In this document: piece by piece, positions 3,745-23,920 of the stretch
Layout of the letters: each line of letters begins with the position of its first letter
How positions within the stretch are numbered: position 1 is the first letter of the stretch
Position numbers and translations under genes: made by a program
Virus record (IMG/VR): IMGVR_UViG_2923302340_000006
Coordinates: 1 to 40,352 of that record
Source: a virus
Lineage: Duplodnaviria; Heunggongvirae; Uroviricota; Caudoviricetes
Direction: 5' to 3' (one strand)
DNA: 40,352 nt
Notes under the pieces: model-generated
What the model saw: the letters and a program-made list of their open reading frames with translations, nothing else
Database searches by the model: none
What the model was told of the DNA's origin: nothing

Positions 3745-3968
3745 TTTCTGTAGGCTTCGATGGCCTCACGAAACATCTTTTCATCGCCAATAAAAGTGGC
3801 GATAGTGAATTTAGTCTGGATAGCCATAAGTGTTTGATCCATTCTTTGGGACTCCTGGCTGATTAAGTATGTCGATAAGGCGTTTCCATCCGTCACGTAA
3901 TTTACGGGTAATTCGTTCAAGTAAAGATTCGGAAGGGCAGCCAGCAACAGGCCACCCTGCAATGGCAT
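3729..3968 (-). CDS. hypothetical protein
   Basis: 79-aa ORF, overlaps the next gene start. Confidence 0.35.
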   Translation of the reverse strand: MPLQGGLLLAALPNLYLNELPVNYVTDGNALSTYLISQESQRMDQTLMAIQTKFTIATFIGDEKMFREAIEAYRKWRSK

Positions 3969-4047
3969 ATTGCATGGTGTGCTCCTTATTTATACATAAC
4001 GAAAAACGCCTCGAGTGAAGCGTTATTGGTATGCGGTAACGCCGCGT

Positions 4048-4416
4048 TCAGGCGGCCTTGATAGTCATATCATCTGAATCAAATATTCCTGATGTATCGA
4101 TATCGGTAATTCTTATTCCTTCGCTACCATCCATTGGAGGCCATCCTTCCTGACCATTTCCATCATTCCAGTCGAACTCACACATAACACCATATGTATT
4201 TAAGTCGCTTGAAATTGCTATAAGCAGAGCATGTTGCGCCAGCATGGTTAATACAGCATTTAATACAGAGCCGTGTTTATTGAGTCGGTATTCAGAGTCT
4301 GACCAGAAATTATTAATCTGGTGAAGTTTTTCCTCTGTCATTACGTCATGGTCGATTTCAATTTCTATTGATGCTTTCCAGTCGTAATCAATGATGTATT
4401 TTTTGATGTTTGACAT
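4048..4416 (-). CDS. hypothetical acidic protein
   Basis: 122-aa ORF; RBS GAGGA before ATG at 4416; AT-rich. Confidence 0.5.
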   Translation of the reverse strand: MSNIKKYIIDYDWKASIEIEIDHDVMTEEKLHQINNFWSDSEYRLNKHGSVLNAVLTMLAQHALLIAISSDLNTYGVMCEFDWNDGNGQEGWPPMDGSEGIRITDIDTSGIFDSDDMTIKAA

Positions 4417-4566: not shown

Positions 4567-5037
4567 CTAATAAAATACCCAATTTTCTGTTTCTTGGTTG
4601 TGCCCAAAGTTATATTCAATATCTGGTGTTGATGTATCAATATTTTTCATCCCATCAACAAGAGTTGATACAACAGCCAAATCTTGTTTTATTCTCATTA
4701 AATGGTATTTCTTCCGGCGCAATAAACTTTCAATAGCAAGTTTCTTCGTTGGGAATGCAAAAGATCTTTCTGCATTTTTTGCTACTTTCTTAATTGCATA
4801 TCTATTTCTCTTTTGTTTCCATTCCTGTAACCACTGATTTGGTGCTGGTTTAAAATTAACAATCCAATGCGCAGGAACCAACCATGCATAATGCTCTGTC
4901 TGATGAAAAGCTATATATTGAAGTGCGAATATTTTGATTCCATCTTCTTCAACTGTCGCCTGGAATCTCCAGAAAACAGGCATTCCATCATGTTCAGTTT
5001 CTGATTCAGGAAAAGGTACGCTCCATGATTTTGTCAT
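4567..5037 (-). CDS. hypothetical protein (AT-rich cargo)
   Basis: 156-aa ORF; RBS GAGGTG before ATG at 5037. Confidence 0.5.
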   Translation of the reverse strand: MTKSWSVPFPESETEHDGMPVFWRFQATVEEDGIKIFALQYIAFHQTEHYAWLVPAHWIVNFKPAPNQWLQEWKQKRNRYAIKKVAKNAERSFAFPTKKLAIESLLRRKKYHLMRIKQDLAVVSTLVDGMKNIDTSTPDIEYNFGHNQETENWVFY

Positions 5038-5237
5038 ATCTCACCTCAAATAAGTGGTTTGCTGTCTAATTTCATTTTCTGGAGACCAACACAAGTCACA
5101 CCCATTTCACTGCGTGGCTTGCGGTAGTAAAGATTGTGCCTGTCTTTTAACCACATCAGGCTCGGTGGTTCTCGTGTACCCCTACAGCGAGAAAAAGAGT
5201 AAAATCCTCTTACCCCTACAGTAAGAGAGTAATTTAT

Positions 5238-5732
5238 ATGGATGTGTTATCTGGTATAACTGCCGCGAAACAGGCTTATGATCTGCTGAAGACAATAAAA
5301 GAAACCAGAGACGATGCTGTTATCGCTAAAGCTATTGGTGATCTACACCAAAGAATAACTGACTTACAGATGCTTAATGCGGAGCTCTCTGGCCTTTATC
5401 AGGCCGAGAAGGAGATCGCAATGAAGCTTCGAGATGAAAATAGAAAAATCAAGATGTTTGTTGTGCAAGCTGAGAATTATGAACTTCATACAACTGAAGG
5501 TGGTTCTGTCGTGTATCGACCTAAGAGTCATTCCGATCCTTCTATTCAGCAGCATAACCTTTGTGCACATTGCTTCGGCGAACATAAAATATCGATACTT
5601 CAACCAAGCACGGTTACTATAAAATCTAATGGGTTCTTTGTGCATTCATGTCCTCGCTGTAAGAATGAATACCGGATGTATAGAGCGCCAGACCCTAAGC
5701 CTGTATATGTACCGCCGCTGACAAATTATTAA
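5238..5732 (+). CDS. hypothetical protein with coiled-coil N-terminus and C-terminal Cys4 zinc ribbon
   Basis: 164-aa ORF on the strand opposite to the surrounding operon; CAHCFGEH ... CPRCKNEY; direct repeats tacccctacag x2 upstream. Confidence 0.5.
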   Translation: MDVLSGITAAKQAYDLLKTIKETRDDAVIAKAIGDLHQRITDLQMLNAELSGLYQAEKEIAMKLRDENRKIKMFVVQAENYELHTTEGGSVVYRPKSHSDPSIQQHNLCAHCFGEHKISILQPSTVTIKSNGFFVHSCPRCKNEYRMYRAPDPKPVYVPPLTNY

Positions 5733-5762
5733 TTTTATTCCTGAAATGGCCTCTTCACCCCC

Positions 5763-6125
5763 TTACTTTGTCAGGGGGATATCTCCTTCAGTTTTGACCA
5801 TTCGCCTTAATACTTTCCTTAAGTCGATGTAAAGTTGAAGGTCTCCATTTGCTGCGGCATCAGCCATTTTTTGCCTGACAAGCAGTAATGTTTCATACGG
5901 CTCAATAAGAATATCGTCATGAGTAATTAGGTGAAGCGTTGCCGCATCAACTATTCCTAGAGCTGCGCCAAGTATCAAAAATTCCCTGCTATTTTTGTCG
6001 CATGAGGAGATAAGCGTATTTAGCGCATACCTAATATTCTTTATAGCTGTTGTTAATGCTGCAATTTCTTCTATGGCGTCTTCTCCAATGAGCTTTTTAA
6101 GCTCATATTTTTCTTCCTGACCCAT
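5763..6125 (-). CDS. hypothetical protein
   Basis: ORF 5763..6194; start trimmed to ATG 6125 (RBS GAGGT) to avoid overlap with the N-like gene. Confidence 0.45.
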   Translation of the reverse strand: MGQEEKYELKKLIGEDAIEEIAALTTAIKNIRYALNTLISSCDKNSREFLILGAALGIVDAATLHLITHDDILIEPYETLLLVRQKMADAAANGDLQLYIDLRKVLRRMVKTEGDIPLTK

Positions 6126-6169
6126 AATTACCTCGCCGTCAGTTGTTTTGATTTCCGGTAGCCTGCCGC

Positions 6170-6400
6170 CTAAAGAGCTACGTTTGGAAGACAAGTTGAA
6201 CCTTCATATTTTCTGATCAACGTTGTCAGAGTTATAACTTCTGCTCTCATTGCTGGTTTGCGCTTGCATTGCAAGACCACTCGTGAGGTGGTTGGCCTGT
6301 GTAGCTTGTCGGAGCTAATCGCCTCCTGACTTTGCAGGTTTGCGCGACGAGCTCTACGGCGAGAAGCTGCGGTGCCTTTAAATTCTGTTTTTCTGGACAT
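6170..6400 (-). CDS. N: N-like transcription antiterminator
   Basis: Arginine-rich motif near N-terminus (TAASRRRARRANLQ); first gene after the pL/nutL region, lambda-like position; start taken at MSRKTEF. Confidence 0.55.
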   Translation of the reverse strand: MSRKTEFKGTAASRRRARRANLQSQEAISSDKLHRPTTSRVVLQCKRKPAMRAEVITLTTLIRKYEGSTCLPNVAL

Positions 6401-6844: not shown

Positions 6845-7597
6845 TTATGCTGCAAGTCTCTTAACCCAAGTCTCTCTTTTGGAGAATGGTAGAACTTGGC
6901 TTGATTCATGGAAGAGTAAGGAGAGTTGTTGCATTTGGTCACCAATTGCTTCGCTGTCTATAACAACAAATCTGTTGTTATACTCCTCACTTGATGCTTT
7001 AAGATCAATTAGTTTCCCAAGCAATGAGTAAGCACTATTCCAGCTTCCTCCGTGTTTCACGCTTGATGTAAAAACGTATTTAGGTATGTCGGTTTTTATT
7101 GTTACAGGGACGGTAATTTGATGTCCACTCAAGCCATATACGTTTTCACGAAGAGAAAGTGCGTCTCTAAGCTCTGTGTGATATAGATAATCAATAACCA
7201 TACTTTCAAACTTTTCAGCTTGAACTGGCTGATACCAGTCTAACGACAAAGTTGATGCGAGTATACCAGCTCTAATTATGTTCGATGTAATCGCACCGAC
7301 ATCCTTTTCTGTTGCCCAAGCAATGATTTCTCCTCGATCATTGAGCTCTGCGCCTTCTTTAAGCAGTAATTGTCGTATCTCATCAAGTCGTTTTTTGGTA
7401 AGCGAGATCCCTCTTGCCTCCATATTCATTAAGGCATCGCATCTATCACTAACTAAATACCTACCATTGACTTCACGGATAAAAGCACCGACATGCTCTC
7501 CATCATCACAGTAAGTGAATGGACTGATAATTCTCAAGGTCTTGCCTATTGGATGGCATTCGAAACCTAGTTGTGAGATCACTGTTGAGCACATCAT
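6845..7597 (-). CDS. unknown protein, distal gene of the cI-adjacent two-gene cassette (rexB position)
   Basis: 250-aa ORF; ATG overlaps the stop of the upstream gene (ATGA); AT-rich; no motif I can assign. Confidence 0.6.
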   Translation of the reverse strand: MMCSTVISQLGFECHPIGKTLRIISPFTYCDDGEHVGAFIREVNGRYLVSDRCDALMNMEARGISLTKKRLDEIRQLLLKEGAELNDRGEIIAWATEKDVGAITSNIIRAGILASTLSLDWYQPVQAEKFESMVIDYLYHTELRDALSLRENVYGLSGHQITVPVTIKTDIPKYVFTSSVKHGGSWNSAYSLLGKLIDLKASSEEYNNRFVVIDSEAIGDQMQQLSLLFHESSQVLPFSKRETWVKRLAA

Positions 7598-8151
7598 ATT
7601 CCAAACCCCATTTGCCCCGACTCATCTTCAAGTGGTAAAGGTATTCTCCCAGAGTAAGTTATGTTCAGATGTTTACAGAAGTAATTCCAATACCCTACCA
7701 GGTCATCTGGGTTTATGTCATCTTCGATTGGAAACGCTATTCTATCACTATAGTATCCAGCTTCTTCATAGTATACATGGTAGTGAGCACCGTAAATGAT
7801 ATCTTGGTACTTCGGATGATCGACCTTGTAACTATTCGTGTGTTTGTCAAAGTGATAGGTATCTACCGCGAAAACCCTCTTGTTATGATAGAAAGCAATA
7901 ATATTTATTTTAGGGTAAGAAATCGGGTCATCAGGTTCTGAATCCTGATCTGGTTTCCATTTCAGTTCAAACTTTAGCCCTTGTATAGGTATACAATCCT
8001 CATCCAAGGGGATGATATGAGCTTGTAGCCACATATCAGAGCGACTTGGTTTCTGTTTCCATTTAACGCCAGAAAAGTTAACTATTTTTTTACAATAAAG
8101 TACTTTATCAACTTCTACTTGGCTTGGCTGATAATCATCTATTTTTGCCAA
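7594..8151 (-). CDS. unknown protein, proximal gene of the cI-adjacent two-gene cassette (rexA position)
   Basis: 185-aa ORF beginning 90 bp downstream of cI on the same strand; apparent TTG start; Asp/Tyr/His-rich; no recognised domain. Confidence 0.55.
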   Translation of the reverse strand: MAKIDDYQPSQVEVDKVLYCKKIVNFSGVKWKQKPSRSDMWLQAHIIPLDEDCIPIQGLKFELKWKPDQDSEPDDPISYPKINIIAFYHNKRVFAVDTYHFDKHTNSYKVDHPKYQDIIYGAHYHVYYEEAGYYSDRIAFPIEDDINPDDLVGYWNYFCKHLNITYSGRIPLPLEDESGQMGFGI

Positions 8152-8241: not shown

Positions 8242-8946
8242 TCACGAACTTTTCAGCCACTCCCTTGCCTCAATGTCATCCAGATGGCGAGATTGCTTCA
8301 GAATACCAGCTACATACTCCACCTTTGCTACTTGATGATAAGGCAACGTTATTGGCCTATGATCCTGGTTGATGCTTGTAAACTGGTATTCTCCGTCTCT
8401 GTCATAGCCAAGAACTTTGATCATGTTGTGTCCTTCAACGGTTCTGACAAACACCTCATCACCCGGGAATACTTTGGTGTTAGGCTCAATGAGTACATAT
8501 TCTCCTGATTTTATTCTAGGCCACATGCTGTCTCCTTTCACACGAAGACCAAAGGCATCTGGATCATCGCTATAAATCTTGAGCCACCCATCGCGCTCTT
8601 CGGTCATCTCGATGGCACCATCAACACCAAGAATTGCCTCACCAACCACGCGCACTAACCCTTTTCTTACCTGACCGACAAAAGTTAAAGAATCTGAGCA
8701 TGATGCAATTGGTGTTACATCATGTACCAAATCAAGCCACCCATTAGGTAACCCAAGTGCGGCTTCGAATTTTCTTGCTAGTTTATCCCCTATGTTTCGA
8801 GTGCTTTTTTCACCGGAGACTTGCGTGAGTTGAGAAGGGCTAACTCCAAGCTTATCGGCAAAGCTTGCATTAGTGTTACCCGCGATTTTTTTATGCTCAT
8901 CTAGCAAAAACGCCAGATTCGATTTGCGAATATCTTTGTTTTCCAT
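8242..8946 (-). CDS. cI: cI-type prophage repressor (HTH + LexA-like S24 autopeptidase domain)
   Basis: 234 aa; N-terminal HTH; C-terminal GDSMWP Ser motif with downstream Lys; divergent from cro. Confidence 0.85.
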   Translation of the reverse strand: MENKDIRKSNLAFLLDEHKKIAGNTNASFADKLGVSPSQLTQVSGEKSTRNIGDKLARKFEAALGLPNGWLDLVHDVTPIASCSDSLTFVGQVRKGLVRVVGEAILGVDGAIEMTEERDGWLKIYSDDPDAFGLRVKGDSMWPRIKSGEYVLIEPNTKVFPGDEVFVRTVEGHNMIKVLGYDRDGEYQFTSINQDHRPITLPYHQVAKVEYVAGILKQSRHLDDIEAREWLKSS

Positions 8947-19103: not shown

Positions 19104-19321
19104 TTTTAATTTCACTGAAATTTAACAAGTGACTTTCAGGAAAATGCCTCGCAGATGCGGGGCGTTTTTGTATAGGTATTTCACCGCGCACCGCAGCGCA
19201 CAATAACCACCGAACCTGACCCTTTGGAATGGGCCTTTGAGGATACCAGTTAGTGCTGGCGAGCCTCGGTGGGCTGGTTTCCTGTGCGGCAAAGGTTCAT
19301 TTCGAAGTAGCAGGTAACGCC

Positions 19322-19735
19322 ATGAATGAATTAATTGTGAATCATGACTTTGACTTTCGCCAGTTAGTTACCGCAGCAGAAGGTCAACCGGTAACTGACA
19401 CCTTCCAGATCGCAAAGGCATTTGGTAAGCGTCATGCGGACGTATTGAGGGCGCTGAAAAATTGTCATTGCTCTGAAGATTTCCGGAGAGCGCATTTTTG
19501 CGTTGCCGAAAAAATCAATGACTTAGGGATTTTTGACAAGAAACAGATTTACTACCGCATGGACTTTAGTGGCTTCGTTATGCTGGTCATGGGATTTAAT
19601 GGCGCAAAAGCCGACGCTGTTAAAGAGGCCTATATAAATGCCTTTAACTGGATGTCTGCAGAACTCCGTAAGTACAGCGAAAGTTATGAACCAGAACGCA
19701 GCCGCAGAGGAAGCATTTCAGTTCATTGGCACTGA
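19322..19735 (+). CDS. rha: Rha-family phage regulatory protein (possibly truncated)
   Basis: Rha-like segment; start taken at MNELIV (ATG 19322) rather than ORF start 19253; an overlapping ORF 19638..19865 in another frame may be its displaced C-terminus. Confidence 0.55.
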   Translation: MNELIVNHDFDFRQLVTAAEGQPVTDTFQIAKAFGKRHADVLRALKNCHCSEDFRRAHFCVAEKINDLGIFDKKQIYYRMDFSGFVMLVMGFNGAKADAVKEAYINAFNWMSAELRKYSESYEPERSRRGSISVHWH

Positions 19736-19867: not shown

Positions 19868-20308
19868 ATGGCGCGCCCAACAAAGTATCAAGAGGCGTAC
19901 GCCGAACAGGCACGCAAACTGTGCTTGCTGGGCTACACCGATGCAGAGCTTGCTGATTTCTTCGAAGTCAGTGAGTCAACTATTAACAAGTGGAAGCTTG
20001 ATTATCCTGAGTTTTCGGAGTCCATAAAAAAGGGTAAGGCCGTTGCTGATGCAGAAGTTAGTGACCGTCTTTATCAACGCGCTATGGGCTTCGTGGCTCC
20101 AGACATCGATATTCGTGTTATTGAAAACAGAGTTGTCGAAACTCCGCTTGAGAAGTATTACCCGCCTGATACAACCGCCGCCATCTTCTGGCTTAAGAAC
20201 CGACAGAAGGATAAATGGCGCGACAAGGTTGATCACGAACTAACAGGCAAAGACGGCGGCGCAATTCAGATTGAAACATCACCGATGAGCACTCTATTCG
20301 GAAAATGA
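19868..20308 (+). CDS. terminase small subunit
   Basis: 146 aa; HTH-like GYTDAELADFFEVSESTINKWK; immediately upstream of and overlapping the large terminase. Confidence 0.7.
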   Translation: MARPTKYQEAYAEQARKLCLLGYTDAELADFFEVSESTINKWKLDYPEFSESIKKGKAVADAEVSDRLYQRAMGFVAPDIDIRVIENRVVETPLEKYYPPDTTAAIFWLKNRQKDKWRDKVDHELTGKDGGAIQIETSPMSTLFGK

Positions 20309-21720
20309 CCTCGATTAATCCTATCTTTGAACCGTTCATTGAGGCGCATCGCTACAAAGTCGCCAAAGGCGGTCGAGGTAGCGGTAAGTCATGGGCAATC
20401 GCGAGGCTGCTTGTTGAGGCGGCGCGTCGGCAGCCGGTGCGTATTCTCTGTGCTCGTGAGCTGCAAAACAGTATCAGTGATTCGGTAATCCGGCTGCTTG
20501 AAGACACCATCGAGCGTGAAGGGTATTCGGCTGAGTTTGAAATTCAGCGTTCCATGATTCGTCATCTCGGAACGAATGCTGAATTCATGTTCTACGGCAT
20601 AAAAAACAACCCGACGAAGATTAAATCGCTCGAAGGCATTGATATCTGCTGGGTGGAAGAAGCGGAAGCGGTAACGAAGGAATCATGGGACATCCTGATA
20701 CCAACCATCCGTAAGCCGTTCTCTGAAATATGGGTGAGCTTTAACCCGAAGAACATACTCGACGATACCTATCAGCGATTCGTTGTAAATCCTCCCGATG
20801 ATATTTGCCTGCTGACGGTGAACTACACCGACAACCCGCACTTTCCTGAAGTTCTCCGTCTGGAGATGGAAGAGTGTAAACGCAGAAACCCGACACTGTA
20901 TCGTCACATCTGGCTTGGTGAGCCAGTAAGCGCAAGTGATATGGCAATCATCAAACGTGAATGGCTTGAAGCTGCAACTGATGCGCACAAGCAACTCGGA
21001 TGGAAAGCGAAAGGCGCGGTTGTTTCTGCGCATGACCCATCAGATACAGGGCCAGATGCTAAAGGTTATGCATCGCGCCACGGTTCGGTAGTTAAGCGCA
21101 TTGCCGAAGGCCTGCTGATGGACATCAACGAGGGTGCTGACTGGGCTACTTCGCTGGCGATTGAAGACGGCGCTGACCATTACCTGTGGGATGGTGATGG
21201 TGTTGGTGCCGGGCTACGCAGACAGACAACGGAAGCGTTCTCCGGCAAGAAAATCACCGCCACGATGTTCAAGGGCAGCGAATCGCCATTCGATGAAGAT
21301 GCTCCGTATCAGGCCGGAGCATGGGCTGATGAAGTCGTACAGGGTGACAACGTTCGCACTATTGGTGATGTGTTCCGCAATAAGCGAGCGCAATTCTATT
21401 ACGCGCTGGCTGACAGGCTTTATCTGACATATCGGTCGGTTGTCCACGGTGAGTATGCAGACCCAGACGACATGCTGAGTTTCGACAAAGAAGCGATAGG
21501 CGAGAATATGCTGGAGAAGCTGTTTGCAGAACTGACGCAGATTCAGCGCAAATTCAATAACAACGGGAAGCTGGAGCTTATGACTAAGGTCGAAATGAAG
21601 CAGAAGCTCGGTATTCCATCTCCTAACCTGGCTGATGCGCTGATGATGTGCATGCATTGCCCGGAGTCGGCTGCGCAACCCGACTATTCCAGTTACTCAA
21701 TTCCTTGTGGTGTAGGTTGA
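20305..21720 (+). CDS. terminase large subunit
   Basis: 471 aa; Walker A KGGRGSGKS; size and position as in P22/Sf6-type phages. Confidence 0.9.
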   Translation: MTSINPIFEPFIEAHRYKVAKGGRGSGKSWAIARLLVEAARRQPVRILCARELQNSISDSVIRLLEDTIEREGYSAEFEIQRSMIRHLGTNAEFMFYGIKNNPTKIKSLEGIDICWVEEAEAVTKESWDILIPTIRKPFSEIWVSFNPKNILDDTYQRFVVNPPDDICLLTVNYTDNPHFPEVLRLEMEECKRRNPTLYRHIWLGEPVSASDMAIIKREWLEAATDAHKQLGWKAKGAVVSAHDPSDTGPDAKGYASRHGSVVKRIAEGLLMDINEGADWATSLAIEDGADHYLWDGDGVGAGLRRQTTEAFSGKKITATMFKGSESPFDEDAPYQAGAWADEVVQGDNVRTIGDVFRNKRAQFYYALADRLYLTYRSVVHGEYADPDDMLSFDKEAIGENMLEKLFAELTQIQRKFNNNGKLELMTKVEMKQKLGIPSPNLADALMMCMHCPESAAQPDYSSYSIPCGVG

Positions 21721-21721
21721 T

Positions 21722-23920
21722 ATGGCAGAAAAAAAGATGAATGACTGGCATCGCAAGGTGCTGTGCAACTTTGATAATGCCTGGTCAGCAACGCAGGATA
21801 TGCGTGAGCAGATTATTGAGGCTCAACGTTTCGTCCGGGTATCCGGCGCACAGTGGGAAGGCAGCACAAACGCTGGTTACTCATTTGATGAAGGCAGGTT
21901 TGAGCATTACCCGCGCTTTGAACTGAATAAGATTGCCCGTGAATGTGATCGCATCATTGGCGAGTATCGACAGAATCGCATCAGCGTTAAATTCAGGCCG
22001 AAGGATGACAAGGCATCGGAAGCGTTAGCCGAAAAGATGAACGGCAAATTCCGCGCTGACTATCAGGAAACATCCGGTGGCGAAGCGTGTGATAACGCAT
22101 TTGATGATGCTGTAACGGGCGGATTCGGTTGTTTCCGCATGTGTGCCGATTACGAAGATGAAATGGACCCAAGTAACGAGCAGCGACGCATCAGCCTTCT
22201 TCCTGTTTACGACCCGGCGACATGCGTCTTCTTCGATCAGGACAGCAAACAATATGACCGCTCTGATGCTATGTGGGCTATGGAAATGTTCTCCATGACG
22301 CCTAAAGCGTTCGAGGCTGAATACCCTGATTCCATTGCGGCAAGCCTTTCTCGGGATGACACTGGTACTCAGTATGACTGGTCAACGCCTGACGCCATCT
22401 ATGTTGGACGTTACTACGAAGTTCGCATAGAGAAGGTGAAGCTCACGGCGTGGCGCAACCCTGTTAGCGGAGAAACGGCAATCTATGATGAAGAGCAAAT
22501 CAAAGATATTGTCGACGAGCTGACCGATGGTGCATTCGAACTGATTGGCGAGCGAACGGTGAAGAAGCGCCGCGTTTATTGCGGTCTTCTGTCTGGCGCT
22601 GAATGGCTGGAAGAACCGAAGCGTATTCCGGGTGAACATATTCCTCTCATCCCGGTATATGGGCGTCGCTCATTTGTTGATAATCAGGAGCGAATCGAAG
22701 GCCACGCAGCAAAAGCGATGGATGCACAGCGTCTTGAGAACCTGATGGTTTCCATGATTGCAGATAACGCTACTCAGGCTGGCGGTGATGGCATTCCTGT
22801 AGTTGATGTTGACATGATTCCTGGTCCTCTCGCCACTCATTGGGCGGAGCGCAACAAAAAGCGCCCGGCGTTCCTGCCGATGGTCAGTCTGAAAAACAAA
22901 AACGGAGATATTACTGCGCAGGCTCAGGTCAGCAGTTATACGCCTCCGACACAAATGCCTCCAGCTCTTGCCGGGCTATTGCAGTACACCGGAACGGCTA
23001 TTCAGCAAATTACAGGTGCGTCGCAGCTTGAGAACATGCCGAGCAACGTCGCTACTGATACCGTTGATAGCATTTTTAACCGGATGGACACGCAGTCCTA
23101 TATCTACATGGACAACATGGCTAAATCTATGCGTCGCGCTGGCGTTGTGTGGCTTTCTATGGCGCGTGAAGTCTATGGCAGCGATACGCCGATGCGTATC
23201 GTTAATGAGGACGGCAGCGATGACGTGGCGCTGATGACTGGTGAAGTGGTTGACCGTCAGACAGGGCAGGTTATCGCGCTTAACGACCTTTCGCAGGGTA
23301 ACTATGAAGTGACTGTCGATGTCGGTCAGTCGTTCGCTACTCGCCGTGATGCAACGGTTAAGTCGTTACTTTCCATGCTGGCACTTATCCCACCAGGAAC
23401 GCCGAAGCACGACCTTGTATCGTCGATGATTCTCGACAATATGGATGGCGAAGGGATGGACGACCTGAAAGAATACAACCGCAATCAGTTGCTTCTGTCT
23501 GGCGTTATCAAGCCGAGAACGCCTGAAGAACAGCAGATGGTTGAGCAGGCGAAACAACAACAGGCCAGTCAGCCAGATCCGGCTATGGTTGCAGCGCAAG
23601 GTCAGCTTCTTGCAGGTCAGGCTGAATTGCAGAAAGCGCAGAACGAACAGGCAGCCATTCAGGTTAAAGCATTCCAGGCACAGACTGATGCTCAGGTTGC
23701 AGCGGCAAACGTTGTGAAAATCCTCGCATCTGCCGATAGCCAGCAGAAATCTGATATCCGCGAGGCTCTGAAACTGCTTGGACAGTTCCAGCAACAGCAA
23801 GGAGATAATGCCCGTGCTGATGCAGAGCTTGTCCTGAAAAGTCAGGCACAGGGCCATGCGCAGCGCATGGACATCAGCAGCATCCTGCAAAAATCAACTC
23901 AGCAACAACCACAGCAGTAA
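21722..23920 (+). CDS. portal protein (P22 gp1-like)
   Basis: 732 aa; resembles P22 portal (GEHIPLIPVYG; TPEEQQMVEQAKQQQASQPDPAMVAAQGQLLAGQAELQKAQNEQ). Confidence 0.9.
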   Translation: MAEKKMNDWHRKVLCNFDNAWSATQDMREQIIEAQRFVRVSGAQWEGSTNAGYSFDEGRFEHYPRFELNKIARECDRIIGEYRQNRISVKFRPKDDKASEALAEKMNGKFRADYQETSGGEACDNAFDDAVTGGFGCFRMCADYEDEMDPSNEQRRISLLPVYDPATCVFFDQDSKQYDRSDAMWAMEMFSMTPKAFEAEYPDSIAASLSRDDTGTQYDWSTPDAIYVGRYYEVRIEKVKLTAWRNPVSGETAIYDEEQIKDIVDELTDGAFELIGERTVKKRRVYCGLLSGAEWLEEPKRIPGEHIPLIPVYGRRSFVDNQERIEGHAAKAMDAQRLENLMVSMIADNATQAGGDGIPVVDVDMIPGPLATHWAERNKKRPAFLPMVSLKNKNGDITAQAQVSSYTPPTQMPPALAGLLQYTGTAIQQITGASQLENMPSNVATDTVDSIFNRMDTQSYIYMDNMAKSMRRAGVVWLSMAREVYGSDTPMRIVNEDGSDDVALMTGEVVDRQTGQVIALNDLSQGNYEVTVDVGQSFATRRDATVKSLLSMLALIPPGTPKHDLVSSMILDNMDGEGMDDLKEYNRNQLLLSGVIKPRTPEEQQMVEQAKQQQASQPDPAMVAAQGQLLAGQAELQKAQNEQAAIQVKAFQAQTDAQVAAANVVKILASADSQQKSDIREALKLLGQFQQQQGDNARADAELVLKSQAQGHAQRMDISSILQKSTQQQPQQ

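Follow-up and report, generated by a model that had tools for sequence, protein, structure and literature searches.

Gene content of the hkaP locus

The analysed window, a stretch of 40,352 nucleotides that makes up IMG/VR virus record IMGVR_UViG_2923302340_000006, is the genome of a P22-like temperate phage with genes for cI, N, terminase, portal and tailspike. The gene hkaP, an open reading frame of 164 amino acids with an ATG start codon, is located downstream of N and runs against the pL operon (Table 1). The flanking genes are all encoded on the minus strand and hkaP on the plus strand, thus hkaP opposes the leftward early operon, as the initial annotation had noted for this reading frame. 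The start of N was placed at an internal methionine according to the match to the Pfam profile N_peptide.

The window DNA from approximately position 5137 to 6194 is 99 % identical to the phages HK620, HK630 and HK629, and the protein shares 99.4 % identity with HkaP of these three phages (HK620: AAK28864). The likeness comprises hkaP itself as well as the same hkaQ and N neighbours, whereas to the left of approximately position 5137 the window carries genes other than those of HK620, namely the phrog_1636 and DUF2528 genes, before cIII is reached. In the annotation of HK620, the product was recorded as 'unknown; putative superinfection exclusion protein'. The gene has been present in GenBank since 2001. 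A full-text literature search for hkaP retrieved unrelated words only. Full-length hkaP was detected in 65 of 5426 complete E. coli genomes. Like the corresponding genes of HK446 and JBD30, it is a single, stand-alone reading frame on the opposite strand of a temperate phage. A small reading frame of 56 amino acids (5054..5224), which crosses the conserved block upstream of hkaP, was set aside as spurious.

Table 1 Features of the hkaP locus; positions refer to the window
Feature	Position	Strand	Basis or remark
cIII	3811..3975	-	left of hkaP; kil is also located there
DUF2528 gene	4048..4416	-	left of hkaP
phrog_1636 gene	4567..5037	-	left flank of hkaP
sas-like antisense region	5121..5242	-	reverse complement match to P22 sas; putative RNA
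predicted sas-like stem-loops	5206-5228, 5169-5194, 5138-5161	-	RNA folding prediction
sieB-type promoter	5175..5205	+	-35 TGTACC 5175-5180, -10 TAAAAT 5200-5205; aligned to BK000583 promoter 29690-29720
TACCCCTACAG, copy 1	5177..5187	+	overlaps -35; loop of sas stem-loop 2 on the minus strand
TACCCCTACAG, copy 2	5211..5221	+	at the inferred +1; part of sas stem-loop 1 on the minus strand
hkaP mRNA start (inferred by homology)	A5212	+	BK000583 'sieB RNA start site' 29727
hkaP, Rip1-family gene (by homology)	5238..5732	+	ORF; identity to HkaP of HK620, HK630 and HK629; match to 9oox
hairpin CCCCCT/AGGGGG	5758..5778		just past the hkaP stop codon, overlaps the 3' end of hkaQ; read from the sequence
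hkaQ (phrog_7374)	5763..6125	-	context gene, between N and hkaP
N antiterminator	6170..~6400	-	first gene of the leftward pL operon; Pfam N_peptide E 3.7e-22

Family and fold of HkaP

HkaP is assigned to phrog_1244 of the PHROGs collection, a group of unknown function. Searches in Pfam, NCBIfam and PADLOC 2023 yielded nothing significant, where PADLOC 2023 and NCBIfam may predate the Rip1 family or omit Rip1. The Pfam profile Zn_ribbon_SprT scored 15.8 bits (E 0.014) and stayed below its cut-off of 28.1. Profile and structure searches had been proposed with the initial annotation, and both matched a Rip1 protein of known structure. A profile built from 22 homologues aligned in residues 17-148 to chain L of PDB entry 9oox, named 'Rip1', with an E value of 1.2e-17, and the single HkaP sequence matched the same chain with an E value of 1.8e-10. 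The title of 9oox describes Rip1 of phage HK446 in complex with the small terminase of phage T6. The AlphaFold2 model of HkaP had a mean pLDDT of 84.7 and comprised two helices (residues 3-22 and 26-78) ahead of a C-terminal domain rich in beta structure. Foldseek comparison of this model with the PDB gave chains M and L of 9oox as the only matches, with E 5e-7 and TM scores of 0.57/0.71; the alignment covered 123 columns with 27 % identity, and the next PDB match had an E value of 0.9. On the amino acid level (BLASTP), HkaP shared 28 % identity with Rip1 of HK446 (E 4e-14) and 27 % with JBD30_030 (E 1e-16). Each of the three proteins has 164 residues, and their four cysteines align. tblastn likewise connected HkaP to HK446 Rip1 and to the Mu-like Pseudomonas phages JBD30, DMS3, D3112 and MP38.

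The cysteines C109, C112, C138 and C141 (CAHC...CPRC) were invariant across the 22 homologues. Together with the two modelled helices, they bear out the coiled-coil-like N-terminus and the C-terminal CxxC...CxxC motif of the initial annotation. The accompanying term zinc ribbon holds for the presence of a four-cysteine domain; this domain is better described as the conserved C-terminal domain of the Rip1 family, and the Pfam zinc-ribbon match is the sub-threshold one given above. A search of 5.8 billion proteins retrieved HkaP homologues in 34 clusters, of which those with a named host all belonged to the Enterobacterales (Escherichia, Salmonella, Serratia, Yersinia, Pantoea, Hafnia, Edwardsiella, Sodalis and Enterobacter). 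An exhaustive profile search recovered 2156 cluster representatives at E <=1e-3, of which 274 also passed E <=1e-10; judged by these sequences, the Rip1/HkaP family is large.

The N-terminal half was inspected for membrane-active features. In the first 80 residues, the maximal hydrophobic moment was 0.51, a value reached by 147 of 500 shuffled sequences; the measure does not discriminate, as both reference Rip1 proteins score likewise. The best Kyte-Doolittle mean over 19 residues was 0.6 for HkaP versus 1.28 for HK446 Rip1, and on this scale no membrane-spanning segment was predicted in HkaP. A hydrophobic stretch rich in glycine and alanine, present at residues 11-29 of HK446 Rip1, is missing in HkaP.

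Rip1, the ring interacting pore 1, is portrayed in section 8 of the review PMC13434031, on Patel et al. 2026 (Nature 651:1060), as a single prophage protein that guards lysogens and is not toxic on its own. According to the same section, escape mutants mapped to the portal in Pseudomonas phages and to the small terminase in E. coli phages. Twelve Rip1 monomers are described there as a ring around the 11-mer ring of the small terminase, with the C-terminal half touching the terminase ring and the N-terminal part forming an amphipathic helix. The assembly is presented as a membrane-permeabilising pore that causes early cell lysis. Rip1 is also mentioned in a conference report (PMC12908700) and in a paper on terminase sensing (PMC13601566), and the account given here draws on all three sources. 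The family was first described in 2026, and its HK446 member, encoded in the same genomic slot as hkaP, has a solved structure.

Genes in the same slot of related phages

Position and orientation of hkaP near N, behind a sieB-type promoter, match those of lambda sieB, which is encoded on the plus strand, directly adjoins N and is opposed to the pL operon. The rip1 gene of HK446 (HK446_037) occupies the same slot as sieB, on the opposite strand and abutting N. A similarity of HK446_037 to HK620p16, which is hkaP, had already been recorded by the annotators of HK446. The two phages agree in the slot beside N and in a 164-residue product with N-terminal helices and a four-cysteine C-terminal domain; they differ in the protein sequence (28 % identity) and in the insertion of hkaQ between hkaP and N in the window. 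Among Salmonella prophages, two homologues with 71 % (P0004) and 63 % identity (P0014) lie on the opposite strand, convergent with N and abutting it. A third with 79 % identity (P0002) is also on the opposite strand of the early-left region; no N gene was called alongside. The loci of Salmonella and HK446 lack hkaQ, and their Rip1-type gene lies directly against N. The claim that this gene is a moron in the sieB/ral neighbourhood of lambda is borne out by the position and orientation shared with lambda sieB and HK446 rip1.

The Rip1 genes of Mu-like phages of Pseudomonas aeruginosa (JBD30_030 and those of DMS3, D3112 and MP38) resemble hkaP as single opposite-strand genes; for JBD30_030, the strand is opposite to its neighbours, and the product has 164 residues with 27 % identity to HkaP. 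They differ in their location, which is given in PMC13434031 as the late region between the genes of the small and the large terminase. Furthermore, they lack the sieB/sas cassette and belong to another host clade.

A sieB-type promoter cassette and its direct repeat

A block of approximately 100-115 bp, hereafter the cassette, precedes hkaP, lambda sieB and P22 sieB. When the 200-bp upstream regions of hkaP, HK446 rip1 and three Salmonella alleles were aligned, about 100 bp proved almost invariant. Between the window and HK446, cassette and mRNA leader were 91.5 % identical in the 117 nt before the ATG, versus 51.6 % in the coding regions, a value from a forced global alignment and close to the level of unrelated DNA. 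An exact 26-nt pattern taken out of the cassette was present in at least 119 IMG/VR contigs. Including other loci, 129 instances were collected, and the first open reading frame after the cassette could be called in 121: it was of the SieB type in 90 and of the Rip1 type in 31 loci, the latter divided into 17 HK446-like and 14 HkaP-like genes. In an all-against-all BLASTP of these 121 cargo proteins, SieB-type and Rip1-type proteins formed separate clusters at E 1e-5, and HkaP had no detectable sequence homology to SieB at this threshold. The SieB-type sequences begin with long hydrophobic stretches. The cassette itself was found in 988 of the 5426 complete E. coli genomes. The assumption of a moron with its own control region is supported, because the cassette precedes either SieB (90) or Rip1 cargo (31), and in P22 promoter and RNA start of this region are annotated.

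The hkaP promoter was placed by alignment to the P22 record BK000583, in which the region was located by BLAST; the coordinate origin of NC_002371/BK000583 differs from that used in PMC13397905. A simple sigma-70 scan missed the promoter at a threshold of 9 out of 12 matching positions. The annotated P22 start 29727 is the A of ACCCCTACAG, 31 nt ahead of the P22 sieB ATG. For hkaP, the homologous start results in a predicted leader of 26 nt with a Shine-Dalgarno-like AAGAGAG at 5222-5228. Among 62 distinct cassette variants, the -10 hexamer changed at positions 3-5 only (TAAACT, TAAAAT, TATAAT, TAACAT), and the start A lay 7 nt past the -10 hexamer in nearly all variants.

Exactly two copies of the direct repeat TACCCCTACAG are present in the whole window of 40 kb, their starts being 34 bp apart. 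The initial annotation had recognized a real repeat with two copies; its positions (5181-5191 and 5207-5217) and its gap of 15 bp have to be corrected to 5177-5187 and 5211-5221 and to 23 bp, respectively. With the BK000583 promoter aligned to 5175-5205 and its start site to 5212, copy 1 overlaps the -35 hexamer and copy 2 provides the first ten bases of the predicted mRNA. In a shuffle test, 2 of 100 shuffled sequences contained two or more matches to the pattern, which had been chosen post hoc. For such a pattern the chance test is weak, therefore the support for the repeat rests on its conservation. Both copies and their spacing were kept in loci that had been collected through protein homology or accession numbers, including lambda, where the block upstream of sieB carries both copies of the 9-bp core CCCCTACAG. 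Copy 2 at a spacing of 34-35 nt was retained in 55 of the 62 variants, whereas the invariance of copy 1 in this set is uninformative, because copy 1 lies inside the search pattern. In nearly all variants, the core and the spacing of 34-35 bp were conserved, while the bases in between varied. On these alignments, the repeats belong to the sieB control cassette and are conserved along with it; they are probably not a separate operator pair.

A sas-like antisense region

Reviews describe the small RNA sas of P22 as a switch of translation inside the sieB gene on which the SieB system critically depends (PMC12197685, PMC7067206). A study of P22 small RNAs from 2026 provides the sas sequence with 127 nt (PMC13397905, Table 2). 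Read as its reverse complement, this RNA corresponds to the P22-type cassette from the second sieB codon back past the promoter. Aligned to P22 sas from position 5242 to 5121, the minus strand of the window shows 82.9 % identity over the full alignment; in the 3' 91 nt, the part upstream of the mRNA start, identity rises to 90 %. By sequence, the cassette thus carries a sas-like sequence that is antisense to the hkaP leader, the Shine-Dalgarno sequence and the start codon, including the first 5 nt of the reading frame (5212-5242).

Three stem-loops were predicted for each of the two RNAs, that of the window and that of P22, with z-scores of -0.5 and -1.8, and the repeat motif CUGUAGGGG is part of the first two predicted stem-loops in both. 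Covariation was limited to one pair with a two-sided change, from U-A to G-C in 4 of 23 sequences. The search pattern covers stem-loop 2, which explains its invariance. Rfam families were not matched in the region 4900-5900 at E values up to 1. A sigma-70-like promoter on the minus strand was not detected in 5238-5330 at the scan threshold, and no conserved minus-strand sas promoter emerged when the initial 75 nt were compared for each type of cargo. Some hkaP alleles contain candidate minus-strand -10 hexamers, GATAAC or GATAAT. The putative sas-like transcript could also stem from read-through of pL transcription.

As reported by Ranade and Poteete in 1993, a superinfecting or growing phage makes sas, which blocks the synthesis of SieB and allows that of Esc. 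A conserved Esc-like internal start was not found in hkaP among the homologues. Two candidate codons were rejected: M62 has a good Shine-Dalgarno sequence (AAGGAG) at the right distance, yet it is not conserved, and M73 is conserved, yet it has no Shine-Dalgarno sequence.

Proposed function and alternative explanations

We consider it likely that hkaP is a divergent abortive-infection defence gene of the Rip1 family and that the repeats upstream are parts of a sieB cassette. Judged by sequence and structural model, HkaP belongs to the Rip1 family and is encoded behind a sieB-type promoter and leader. The homology over the whole length, the equal length and the matching fold argue for a conserved mechanism. 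By analogy, we infer an anti-phage activity of HkaP, its trigger and the use of the promoter; any role of the sas-like RNA is more speculative. In the lysogen, hkaP would be transcribed rightward from the sieB-type promoter with its start at A5212, independent of the repressed pL operon. A second infecting phage would provide the trigger by making the ring of its small terminase or portal. The four-cysteine domain at the C-terminus, probably the ring-binding half by homology to Rip1 (PMC13434031, section 8), would bind around the ring of the foreign phage; a membrane pore would next arise from the N-terminal helices, so that the cell dies before progeny is made. An exclusion function, as previously suggested for this gene, fits the homology to Rip1 as an abortive-infection protein; the alternative suggestion of anti-restriction found no support. 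A gene of HK620-type phages that was filed for 25 years as unknown or putative exclusion thus gains a concrete candidate function. Moreover, the lambdoid slot beside N appears to accommodate at least two mutually unrelated effectors of abortive infection, which share one promoter/antisense-RNA cassette.

A close known arrangement is the sieB-esc-sas region of P22 and sieB of lambda, which share with hkaP the N-adjacent position, the orientation, the promoter, the RNA start and the sas region, and, by analogy, perhaps an abortive-infection type of exclusion exerted from a prophage. The cargo differs: SieB-type proteins have hydrophobic segments and are unrelated to HkaP, which lacks such segments. 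HkaP could nevertheless be a functional analogue of SieB that, e.g., blocks the macromolecular synthesis of the superinfecting phage, its likeness to Rip1 reflecting ancestry only. The shared slot, orientation, promoter and sas cassette, the label given by the HK620 annotators and the low identity of 27-28 % to the tested Rip1 proteins are in line with such a role. We regard it as unlikely, as HkaP has neither homology to SieB nor a hydrophobic segment: at E 1e-5 the two cargo types are unrelated, a membrane-spanning segment as in SieB-type cargo is absent, and full-length homology, length and fold all point to Rip1. A highly improbable role is that of a nucleic-acid-binding zinc-ribbon regulator or a Ral-like anti-restriction factor, for which the CxxC...CxxC motif, the sub-threshold Zn_ribbon_SprT match (E 0.014) and the location in the ral neighbourhood could be cited; no such family matched at threshold, and the significant relatives in sequence and fold were Rip1 proteins only.

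The repeats permit other explanations as well. Two identical 11-mers that bracket the promoter core at -35 and +1, with a conserved core CCCCTACAG, a conserved spacing of 34-35 bp and variable bases in between, would suit an operator pair for a protein regulator of the promoter. There is little likelihood for this, as a regulator is neither known nor encoded nearby, a spacing of 34 bp does not correspond to an integral number of helical turns, the search pattern itself imposes the invariance of copy 1 on the large set, and both copies are situated in predicted stem-loops of an RNA that was detected in P22. The placement in the predicted sas stem-loops is a sufficient reason for the conservation of the repeat without an operator. 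The view of the repeats as control elements stands insofar as they belong to the control region, as constituents of a promoter/antisense-RNA unit rather than as an operator pair of their own. On the minus strand, the hairpin at 5206-5228 with its T-rich run could alternatively be an intrinsic terminator of leftward pL transcription, with the repeat being incidental. A consensus scan flagged 9 pairs followed by ATTTTACTCT, and the annotators of HK620 placed several tL terminators in this region. But the U-tract is interrupted, lambda retains the repeat without the hairpin, and the sequenced P22 sas RNA passes the equivalent stem-loop and continues for approximately 90 nt (PMC13397905), which makes a terminator quite improbable.

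For hkaP as a Rip1-family defence gene behind a sieB cassette, the question of self-tolerance arises, since the phage makes its own ring-shaped terminase and portal. The potential triggers encoded in the window are the small terminase TerS (19868-20308), the large terminase (20305-21720) and the portal (21722-23920). Tentatively, and with the odds against it, the cassette may be a portable module in front of SieB or Rip1 cargo, in which a sas-like RNA made during the phage's own lytic growth shuts off Rip1 translation. Such a shutoff would shield the phage from its own pore-former and would represent an RNA-based self-immunity of Rip1. Insensitive alleles of the phage's own terminase and portal proteins would explain self-tolerance equally well. 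The gating of Rip1 by a sas-like RNA is the only part of the proposal that could be novel; if true, it would explain how a prophage survives its own sensor of assembly rings and would extend the classic antisense switch of P22 sas to a new effector.

Variants of the cassette without cargo

In five loci (L017, L025, L070, L094 and L120) the cassette was fused straight to the hairpin that follows the hkaP stop codon, with no cargo gene in between. A neighbouring hairpin that overlaps it (5773-5787) was flagged as terminator-like by the scan. The hairpin at 5758..5778 is possibly both a terminator and the junction used by the variants without cargo.

Cassette occupancy and possible gain or loss of the Rip1-type gene

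Five IMG/VR loci (L017, L025, L070, L094 and L120) possessed the cassette, the sieB-type promoter/leader with the sas-like antisense RNA region, in the absence of a cargo gene; the counterpart region in the window is 5212-5763. In these loci the cassette continued straight into CCCCCTTATTTTGTCAGGGGG, the hairpin with which hkaQ ends at its 3' side. The fusion point falls within a short stretch of homology, ACCCC, with which the second direct repeat (repeat copy 2) opens; this suggests recombination at this junction as the route of a clean gain or loss of the Rip1-type gene. Among 5426 complete E. coli genomes, 65 carried the full cassette together with hkaP, the Rip1-family candidate defence gene, and 988 contained the cassette at least in part. 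Among the 1072 matching places, seven were plasmid-borne. Within the cassette, the only two-sided compensatory change was found in the predicted third stem-loop of the sas-like RNA, the stem GCCTG/CAGGC being replaced by GCCGGG/CCCGGC in L006, L085, L126 and L127.

Inside hkaP, at window 5415-5423, a perfect Shine-Dalgarno sequence, AAGGAG, was read from the sequence 6 nt ahead of the in-frame ATG of Met62. A start at this codon would yield a product truncated at the N-terminus, comparable to Esc, the internal-start product of P22 sieB. Met62 varies among the homologues and is not conserved, hence an Esc-like product of hkaP is unsupported.

Neighbouring genes

Features of the window outside the hkaP reading frame
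Feature	Position	Strand	Remark
DUF2528/phrog_646 gene	4048-4416	minus	between cassette and cIII
phrog_1636 gene	4567-5037	minus	between cassette and cIII
Third sas stem-loop, predicted	5138-5161		stem GCCTG/CAGGC
hkaQ (phrog_7374)	5763-6125	minus	between N and hkaP
PDC-M24-like gene pair, overlapping	6845-7597 and 7594-8151	minus	PADLOC and Pfam matches
Rha-like or antirepressor-like ORF	19253-19735	plus	phrog_518, E 1e-56

The gene hkaQ, without a match in Pfam or PADLOC, has the same location in HK620, HK630 and HK629 as in the window. HK446 and the Salmonella loci lack it, and there the Rip1-type gene adjoins N. hkaQ represents an independent insertion into the hotspot that also holds hkaP. 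The phrog_1636 and DUF2528/phrog_646 genes are absent from HK620; lambda carries ral and ea10 in their place.

The overlapping gene pair, located between N/pL and the cI repressor gene (8242-8946), occupies the slot of rexAB in lambda. Among the candidate defence systems in PADLOC it matched PDC-M24, with E 4.4e-10 for PDC-M24B and E 4.8e-4 for PDC-M24A; in Pfam it matched DUF1828, with DUF6978 under its cut-off. The pair is probably a second defence expressed from the prophage. In this P22-like genome, the Rha-like or antirepressor-like ORF lies just ahead of the small terminase gene.
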